Assembly: GCA_017530505.1 (NCBI GenBank)
Contig: JAFXMI010000019.1
Span: 1-31,811 of the forward strand
DNA length: 31,811 bases
Reading direction: 5' to 3'
DNA from: Clostridia bacterium
GTDB lineage: Bacteria; Bacillota; Clostridia; TANB77; CAG-508
Shown: positions 4,801 through 5,054 of the stretch, piece by piece
How positions within the stretch are numbered: position 1 is the stretch's first letter
Layout of the letters: every line of letters starts with the position of its first letter
Position numbers and translations under genes: made by a program
Notes under the pieces: model-generated
The model's input: the letters and a program-made list of their open reading frames with translations, nothing else
Told to the model about the DNA's origin: nothing
Databases searched by the model: none

Positions 4801-5054
4801 GTTACAATTCACGGCTATAATTTTTTGTTTAGCTGTATTTAGCTGAAACATATATAATACTAATTAGCGAAATGACTTAAGCGAAATGAAAACATTTAGA
4901 TTCTCTTATTAATGAAGGTAGGGAATCTCATTGCATGAGGACACTACCTGAATTAATTAGAGACTATGTTTAAATGTAGTAATTTAAGATGTAGCAATTT
5001 AGTATTATATATGTTTCAGCTTTAAATAAATTTGTATAAAACTTAAATTGTAAC
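4801..5054 (+). repeat. Copy 1 of a ~254-nt rod-like imperfect palindrome; candidate structured ncRNA, ssDNA hairpin or MITE-like element
   Basis: Termini are GTTACAATT and AATTGTAAC. A perfect 23-bp stem pairs 4841-4863 with 4999-5021. Nested helices run down to the apical CUCAU-UGC-AUGAG hairpin at 4927-4939. A second copy lies at 14083-14334. Confidence 0.8.

Follow-up and report, generated by a model that had tools for sequence, protein, structure and literature searches.

The 31,811-nucleotide (nt) stretch of DNA analysed here (the window; contig JAFXMI010000019.1, G+C content 24.8%) is the chromosomal replication-origin region of an uncultured Clostridia metagenome-assembled genome (MAG) of about 25% G+C, the GyrA of which is 100% identical to P0002 and 84% identical to that of the nearest named relative, Candidatus Scatovivens. 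The forward strand carries, in this order, rnpA, yidC, jag, mnmE, mnmG, rsmG, soj, spo0J and two tRNA-Ser genes, and the reverse strand dnaA, dnaN, a fragmented recF, gyrB, a VirB4 gene with stop codons and a frameshift, a split ParA-like gene and gyrA. Leftward of gyrA follow a DnaI-like/DnaD-like pair, an orphan gene coding for 279 amino acids (aa) and type IV secretion system (T4SS) genes, including one for a TraG/VirD4-type coupling protein. Two copies of a palindromic foldback element are found within this arrangement, copy 1 between the DnaI-like/DnaD-like pair and the orphan gene and copy 2 between gyrB and the VirB4 remnant, and it is the nature of this element that is considered here.

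The two copies (Table 1) have the same orientation and differ in 26 of 254 aligned columns, one 2-nt indel included, so that the positions, the shared orientation and the identity of about 90% given in the original prediction were all borne out. Their likeness is bounded by the terminal inverted repeats (TIRs) GTTACAATT and AATTGTAAC, and beyond the left end they have only ATT in common. In copy 2 these termini lie at 14083-14091 and 14326-14334; by chance, the 9-mer GTTACAATT would be expected about 0.5 times per strand of the window. A perfect 9-bp GTTACAATT/AATTGTAAC pair is present in all three members of the family, namely copy 1, copy 2 and a shortened version from other strains (described below), which are 254, 252 and 85 nt long, respectively. 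Both full copies are AT-rich and intergenic, and none of the open reading frames (ORFs) of at least 20 aa lies wholly within either of them, as all those with an overlap (four for copy 1 and two for copy 2) extend into the flanks. The 39-mer at 4902-4940, which had been singled out as invariant, is real, as it occurs twice in the window compared to 0 expected occurrences, but it is not evidence of a conserved core; we roughly estimate that an unchanged run of 39 nt is nothing unusual when two 254-nt sequences differ by 10%.

Folded as RNA, copy 1 reaches -75.8 kcal/mol (z = -9.5 compared to dinucleotide shuffles) and copy 2 -68.7 kcal/mol (z = -6.9), and the corresponding z-scores for folding as single-stranded DNA (ssDNA) are -8.4 on the forward and -7.3 on the reverse strand. 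The fold of copy 1 is one rod, made up of 9 terminal pairs, a perfect 23-bp helix (4841-4863 with 4999-5021) and the apical hairpin, and the single long palindrome that had been described, including its 9-nt termini, was thus recovered. Fifteen of the 26 columns that differ between the copies fall in paired positions, to which 68% of all positions belong. One pair (15-32) has changed in a compensatory manner and four have been kept through G-U or A-U pairing, while seven are broken, including two in the 23-bp helix, and a further two are lost through the 2-nt indel. To the extent that two sequences can tell, this substitution pattern looks like the neutral decay of a palindrome, for which it is weak evidence.

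Copy 1, copy 2 and the 85-nt version are all located in very AT-rich DNA, about 40 nt upstream of the -35 box of a promoter. In the case of copy 2, the TTG at 14042, formerly taken as the start of VirB4-N, is actually the first base of a promoter on the reverse strand, which means that copy 2 precedes a -35 box by 40 nt, and not a start codon. The claim that the two copies occupy the two largest non-coding gaps is correct for copy 1 (gap 4389-5183, the largest) but not for copy 2, since the dnaA-rnpA spacer (20378-20868, 491 nt) exceeds its gap (14043-14459, 417 nt).

Table 1. Foldback element copies and associated features in the window.
Feature	Position	Strand	Remarks
Foldback element, copy 1	4801..5054	+	254 nt; long imperfect palindrome with perfect 23-bp helix; apical hairpin at 4927-4939
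Left TIR of copy 1, GTTACAATT	4801..4809	+	partner AATTGTAAC at 5046-5054
Foldback element, copy 2	14083..14334	+	252 nt; oriented as copy 1; about 90% identical; several stem mismatches
Strain-specific 1585-bp insertion	3479..5063	+	promoter, orphan 279-aa gene, 412-nt spacer, copy 1 and 9 more bases
Left 22-nt direct repeat, ATAGTTTTTATTAAAATAATAAT	3457..3478	+	compared to the right repeat, T to G and one T fewer
Right 22-nt direct repeat, ATTTTTTTATTAAAATAATAAT	5064..5085	+	single occurrence in empty-site strains
Orphan 279-aa gene	3549..4388	+	within the insertion; read as cargo, not as transposase
Likely promoter of the dnaD-like gene, TTGTTT-16-TATAAT	5096..5123	+	41 nt from the right end of copy 1; read by eye, not listed by the consensus scan; region conserved in relatives
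Promoter of the VirB4 remnant, TTGACA-17-TATTAT	14014..14042	-	40 nt from the left end of copy 2; TTGACA kept in relatives
Third copy of the AT-rich insertion-target sequence	27689..27733	+	upstream of the soj/parA promoter; 43 of 45 positions as in 5065-5109
Weak likeness to model positions 97-155 of the element (apical part)	3389..3447	+	E = 0.11, not significant; also present in empty-site strains

The presence of copy 1 varies between strains, as revealed by a comparison of contigs encoding an identical DnaD-like protein. Two of these (L011 and L013) lack exactly the 1585-bp segment listed in Table 1, with a clean junction and with flanks that are 99.4-99.7% identical to the window, leaving 193 nt between a 99-aa T4SS gene and dnaD. 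The insertion was carried by at least six samples, which differ from each other by at most 0.055%, and L011 and L013 are 0.3-0.5% divergent both from the carriers and from each other. Since the outgroup locus L003 is uninterrupted across the insertion point, the filled state is the derived one. The spacer between the orphan gene and copy 1 shows no notable structure (z = -1.5).

A 45-nt AT-rich sequence (beginning TTTTTTTATTAAAATAATAATAATTTTATATTGTTTTTTT) is found directly upstream of the -35 regions of the dnaD-like gene (5065-5109) and of soj/parA (27689-27733), and in part at 3460-3482. Its first 19 nt also precede the promoter of the 279-aa gene, the exact 19-mer occurring three times in the window compared to 0.3 expected occurrences. 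The 45-nt sequence could be a shared UP-element, an operator or a preferred insertion target.

The 85-nt version was found at the other site, in a strain that is more divergent (L029 and L030, with 97.1% identity to the window in the VirB4 region). It consists of arm positions 1-59 of the element, 55 of which match copy 1, followed by a right terminus resembling that of copy 2, both termini thus being kept and about 170 nt of the middle being gone. Its orientation is inverted, and it precedes the same VirB4 -35 box by 38 nt, compared to 40 nt in the case of copy 2. In L029, homology to the window ends 11-13 nt before the element, and the DNA beyond is unrelated: in the window it is gyrB and in L029 a surface-protein gene, and the junction has therefore been rearranged between strains. 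A solo AATTGTAAC terminus was found 29 nt from the 85-nt version in L029. The gene upstream of the VirB4 promoter in L029 (positions 1-1518) codes for a secreted or surface protein with a pilin-like N-terminus followed by Big_2 and Listeria-Bacteroides repeats; on account of these repeats, this 505-aa gene was rejected as a candidate transposase.

In related species (L003-L010, comprising six distinct neighbourhoods, with GyrA identities of 87-93%), a full-length element was not found at either site. These loci share the neighbourhood of gyrB, VirB4 pieces, a ParA-like gene, gyrA, the DnaI/DnaD pair and T4SS genes. As the relatives keep the conjugation remnant and lack the element, the latter is younger than the remnant and not an inherited part of it. 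In the sister species represented by L008, a 23-nt piece of the right end of the element, with one mismatch, precedes the dnaD promoter. This piece was encountered a single time in 143 kb of outgroup DNA, and none of 100 simulations produced it. It is abutted by an unrelated 217-nt element (L008 14640-14856), which has 39-bp TIRs that are 97% complementary and a comparatively GC-rich interior, and for which no Rfam match was found. Taken together, these findings indicate that small TIR elements have repeatedly inserted into the AT-rich DNA about 40 nt upstream of both promoters. L007 (14600-15240) harbours, likewise upstream of dnaD and at the same site, a different insertion of about 500 nt, with a 64-aa ORF and a GC-rich hairpin (CCCCCCTCTACTACATATAGTAGAGGG). 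As for the gyrB-VirB4 spacer, its counterpart in L003 (5380-5640, reverse-strand view; a relative with 93% GyrA identity) contains a perfect parS (TGTTTCACGTGAAACA) and two tandem perfect DnaA boxes (TGTGGATAATTGTGGATAA), where the spacer of the window holds the foldback element.

Searches for further relatives were made in several collections. Using blastn, no match to the element was found among 72,556 plasmids (11-base words), nor among 50,697 phage records. An exact 20-mer across the hairpin apex gave 0 hits in the GTDB genomes (species representatives), the JGI metagenomes and IMG/VR, and a 20-mer from the arm gave 0 hits in IMG/VR and was found in four JGI metagenome contigs, all of them chance matches without a palindrome. 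The apex-spanning 20-mer is a poor probe because assemblies tend to break at the apex. Several contigs stop inside the element: L018 (at its position 1), L022 and L023 (window position 4931) and L002 and L017 (window position 14310), with the breaks of the first three located at the hairpin apex or only a few bases from it. As a result, the element is under-represented in public short-read assemblies, and this breakage hides such elements from pattern searches that span the apex.

Based on these results, the interpretation that we favour, with moderate confidence, is that the sequence is a non-autonomous, non-coding foldback element resembling a miniature inverted-repeat transposable element (MITE), with 9-bp TIRs, and that it belongs to a small family private to one uncultured, 25%-G+C gut/rumen Clostridia lineage. 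A MITE was one of the candidate identities in the original prediction and has gained support from the discrete, TIR-bounded unit, its absence in syntenic relatives, its presence or absence between strains, the inverted 85-nt derivative and the unrelated TIR element at the site in the sister species. The label rests on the evidence for mobility (L011 and L013 without copy 1, the inverted mini copy in L029 and L030, and the relatives without the element) and not on a known partner insertion sequence (IS). Prokaryotic MITEs have been described as shorter than 500 bp and AT-rich, with TIRs of 4-30 bp, located at AT-rich intergenic sites and able to form stable stem-loops (PMC10969869), and the element agrees with this description in length, TIRs, AT-richness, intergenic site and stem-loop. 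It has also been reported that MITE families can include copies of variable size and that the direct repeats flanking MITEs decay with age (PMC10969869). Correia/NEMIS from Neisseria, RUP from S. pneumoniae, QMITE2 from Coxiella and Chunjie (PMC10969869) resemble the element in being non-coding, AT-rich, shorter than 500 bp and intergenic near promoters, as well as in having TIRs of 4-30 bp, a very stable hairpin, size variants and strain polymorphism. The element differs from these four in that it has no target-site duplication (TSD) at its termini, no cognate IS identified, few copies seen and no sequence similarity to them, and in that one copy forms the terminus of a 1.6-kb unit, with which a duplication of 19-22 bp is associated.

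An enzyme encoded elsewhere would act in trans, recognising the GTTACAATT ends or the folded hairpin, and would thereby move the element. Copy 1 may have arrived as the right-hand end of the 1585-bp unit, together with an unrelated 279-aa gene, and this arrival would have duplicated about 19-22 bp of the target. An effect on the host would be secondary: judging from its position upstream of the dnaD-like and VirB4 promoters, a hairpin or cruciform could insulate or modulate them. As a MITE-like repeat, the element matters only locally, in that it is a sign of recent genome flux around the replication origin of an uncultured Clostridia lineage with a decaying genome, and in that it breaks short-read assemblies.

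Several observations weigh against the MITE-like interpretation. The TSD of MITEs was not found for the element, the sole clear duplication (22 nt) being the one that flanks the 1585-bp unit, and there is no significant direct repeat at the palindrome's own termini (p = 0.79 for copy 1 and p = 0.36 for copy 2), so that an apparent 17-nt direct repeat flanking copy 2 was rejected. The absence of a clear TSD, of a notable ORF and of a transposase in the window had been anticipated by the original prediction and was confirmed. Moreover, the polymorphic unit is the 1585-bp segment and not the palindrome alone, and its right boundary lies 9 nt past the palindrome terminus. The left end of this unit shows a weak likeness to the left arm of the palindrome (p = 0.02), and TIRs for the 1585-bp unit were rejected since this likeness was all that was found. 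A duplication of 19-22 bp is long for a transposase, and the duplicated sequence might instead represent the core of an event that was site-specific or driven by microhomology. Long or variable target duplications have been reported for some IS families (the IS1182 family, IS1634). A transposase or IS with GTTACAATT ends was found neither in the part of the genome of this strain that was read (about 34 kb) nor in the 30 fetched loci, and the known members are few: two full copies in those 34 kb and, in other strains or species, a single mini copy and a single remnant. Finally, every contig encoding an identical VirB4-N protein carries copy 2, and no empty site for copy 2 was obtained. The lack of a TSD, the dominant hairpin and a boundary about 10 nt past the hairpin foot at one end are reminiscent of palindrome-associated transposable elements (PATEs). 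PATEs derived from IS200/IS605 lack TIRs, insert beside a fixed 4-5-nt target and cause no target duplication. The element differs from them in that it has TIRs, in that the bases flanking its three members differ, and in that no TnpA/TnpB gene was found.

Homology with empty or alternative sites does not resume directly at the termini of the element but only after 9-13 nt of non-conserved sequence. Together with the long duplication of the 1585-bp event, these edges leave room for another explanation, which we consider unlikely, namely that the palindrome serves small gene cassettes as a recombination site or as their boundary module. A recombinase or hairpin-recognising enzyme would insert gene plus palindrome at an AT-rich core, the 19-22-bp repeat being an att-like core, and copy 2 and the mini version being leftovers of earlier exchanges. 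This would account for the location of copy 1 at 9 nt from the right end of an insertion flanked by a 22-nt repeat, for the three exact occurrences of the 19-mer, including the one upstream of soj, and for the VirB4 site in L029, with its homology break, the unrelated DNA beyond it and the nearby solo terminus. On the other hand, no integrase or recombinase gene was found in the window or in the fetched loci, the difference between the left repeat and the empty site falls exactly on the outer edge of the repeat, which would not be expected from a simple attB x attP exchange, and P0122, a homologue of the cargo protein, is encoded without an adjacent palindrome. The attC sites of integrons start with RYYYAAC, end with GTTRRRY and are 57-141 nt long. 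The element has the reversed terminal polarity (GTTAC...GTAAC) and, at 254 nt, exceeds this length. It is similar to attC sites of gene cassettes in being an imperfect palindrome 3' of a single mobile gene and possibly recognised as a folded strand, but the gap of 412 nt between gene and palindrome and the cassette's own promoter set it apart, and neither an integron integrase nor a cassette array was found.

A role as an ssDNA hairpin in replication or transfer, i.e. as a single-strand origin (sso), primosome site or origin of transfer (oriT) of the surrounding conjugative remnant or of a small integrated replicon, was also proposed originally and is now disfavoured; we regard it as quite unlikely. 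The strong fold on both strands, a perfect TATAAT inside the 23-bp helix and the location of both copies next to T4SS genes and the DnaD/DnaI-type pair are in agreement with such a role, as would be the TAGCGA at 4865-4870, which we take to resemble the CS-6 motif of ssoA. Integrative and conjugative elements (ICEs) can carry structure-dependent single-strand origins (PMC4595007), and the element is similar to ssoA, ssoT, ssoU, ssoW and sso1 of ICEBs1 (PMC4595007) in being a non-coding imperfect palindrome within the range of 150-300 nt that folds as ssDNA, lies near conjugation genes and has a -10-like hexamer in its stem. Single-strand origins are orientation-specific (PMC4595007), yet the member in L029 is inverted and has lost its middle, so that both orientations and a truncated form are found at one site. 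In addition, the element is missing from both sites in the relatives with the same T4SS remnant, i.e. it is not conserved together with the conjugation remnant, which is itself decayed, VirB4 being in pieces in the window and in the six distinct neighbourhoods. No relaxase or Rep gene that could serve as a partner was found among the scanned ORFs of the window, none of which has a transposase, integrase, recombinase, relaxase or Rep domain, the neighbouring 279-aa protein has neither a Rep/HUH family match nor a fold match among solved structures, and the element has no similarity to any of the plasmids searched with blastn.

More remote still is the idea that the palindrome is the recognition module of an undescribed mobilisation system, in which the end hairpin would direct gene-plus-hairpin cassettes into AT-rich, promoter-upstream DNA with a duplication of about 20 bp. 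The enzyme would be encoded elsewhere and fall outside the IS families with short duplications, and the loss of cassettes would have left copy 2 and the 85-nt version behind. The 1.6-kb insertion of gene and hairpin would matter more than a MITE-like repeat if it truly reflects an unrecognised insertion mechanism.

An inert local palindrome without mobility of its own, arising from an inverted duplication and copied once by segmental duplication or recombination, would fit the handful of known copies, the lack of a flanking target duplication and the failure to find a transposase, but it is very improbable given three members in different flanking contexts and in two orientations, exact boundaries at the same 9-bp termini, a deletion derivative that keeps both of them and a terminal remnant in another species (L008).

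Least supported, and equally improbable, is a structured non-coding or cis-regulatory RNA, the long rod serving as a processing site, stabiliser or regulator of the neighbouring genes: this candidate of the original prediction could draw on the very stable RNA fold, on the compensatory pair and the four pairing-preserving changes, and on probable transcription by read-through, since no terminator separates the upstream genes from the element, but the stems are not spared by substitutions, close relatives and some conspecific strains lack the element, and the two full copies have opposite senses relative to local transcription, copy 1 being sense to the orphan gene and dnaD and copy 2 antisense to gyrB and VirB4. 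Sequence scans of both copies gave no promoter or terminator of their own that stands out, and the Rfam covariance models gave neither a match at the gathering threshold nor a credible one at E up to 10, the best sub-threshold values being E = 0.7 to 4.

The orphan gene that forms part of the 1585-bp insertion is read as cargo. Its 279-aa product has no match in Pfam, NCBIfam, PADLOC, PHROG or the PDB sequences and no close homologue among 5.8 billion proteins. An exhaustive search yielded 16 remote homologues, resulting in a family of 17 representatives among 1.8 billion clusters, in which the motifs PAHR..LEE, GF and WNGxPLxLN are conserved. The AlphaFold model, which is confident (pLDDT 81), has helical N- and C-termini with a long antiparallel beta-meander between them, and no meaningful fold match to it was found in PDB or BFVD (query-normalised TM at most 0.28). 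A profile search of GTDB genomes with the alignment of the family gave no related loci, and the homologue P0122 is encoded among ordinary chromosomal genes, with no palindrome nearby. A function of the gene as transposase, Rep or recombinase was rejected, in view of the absence of family and fold matches and of the ordinary context of P0122.

The T4SS gene set of the window is present in two halves (84-3385 and 9754-14042), which are placed around dnaD/dnaI and gyrA, between gyrB and gyrA, an arrangement shared by the species with GyrA identities of 87-93%. It is an old, decaying ICE at the replication origin, with VirB4 fragmented in a different pattern in the window and in each of the six distinct neighbourhoods examined. 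Split genes at 16458-17533, 10571-11579 and 6158-7175 suggest ongoing genome decay: recF, which is intact in L003 (357 aa), is in two or three pieces, the ParA/CbiA-like gene (355 aa in L003) is divided into 119 + 172 aa and the DnaI-like gene (339 aa in L003) into 96 + 235 aa. Sequencing errors in the MAG may have contributed, though these splits recur in independent assemblies. Two parS-like sites, at 26139-26154 and 26856-26871 (0 and 1 mismatch to TGTTNCACGTGAAACA, respectively), lie within mnmG and rsmG, as is typical of origin-proximal parS. Finally, three 62-nt repeats, 77-79% identical and spaced at 132 nt, were identified at 30714-31039, within an ORF (30549-31811) that leaves the window and codes for a protein with 44-aa tandem repeats.

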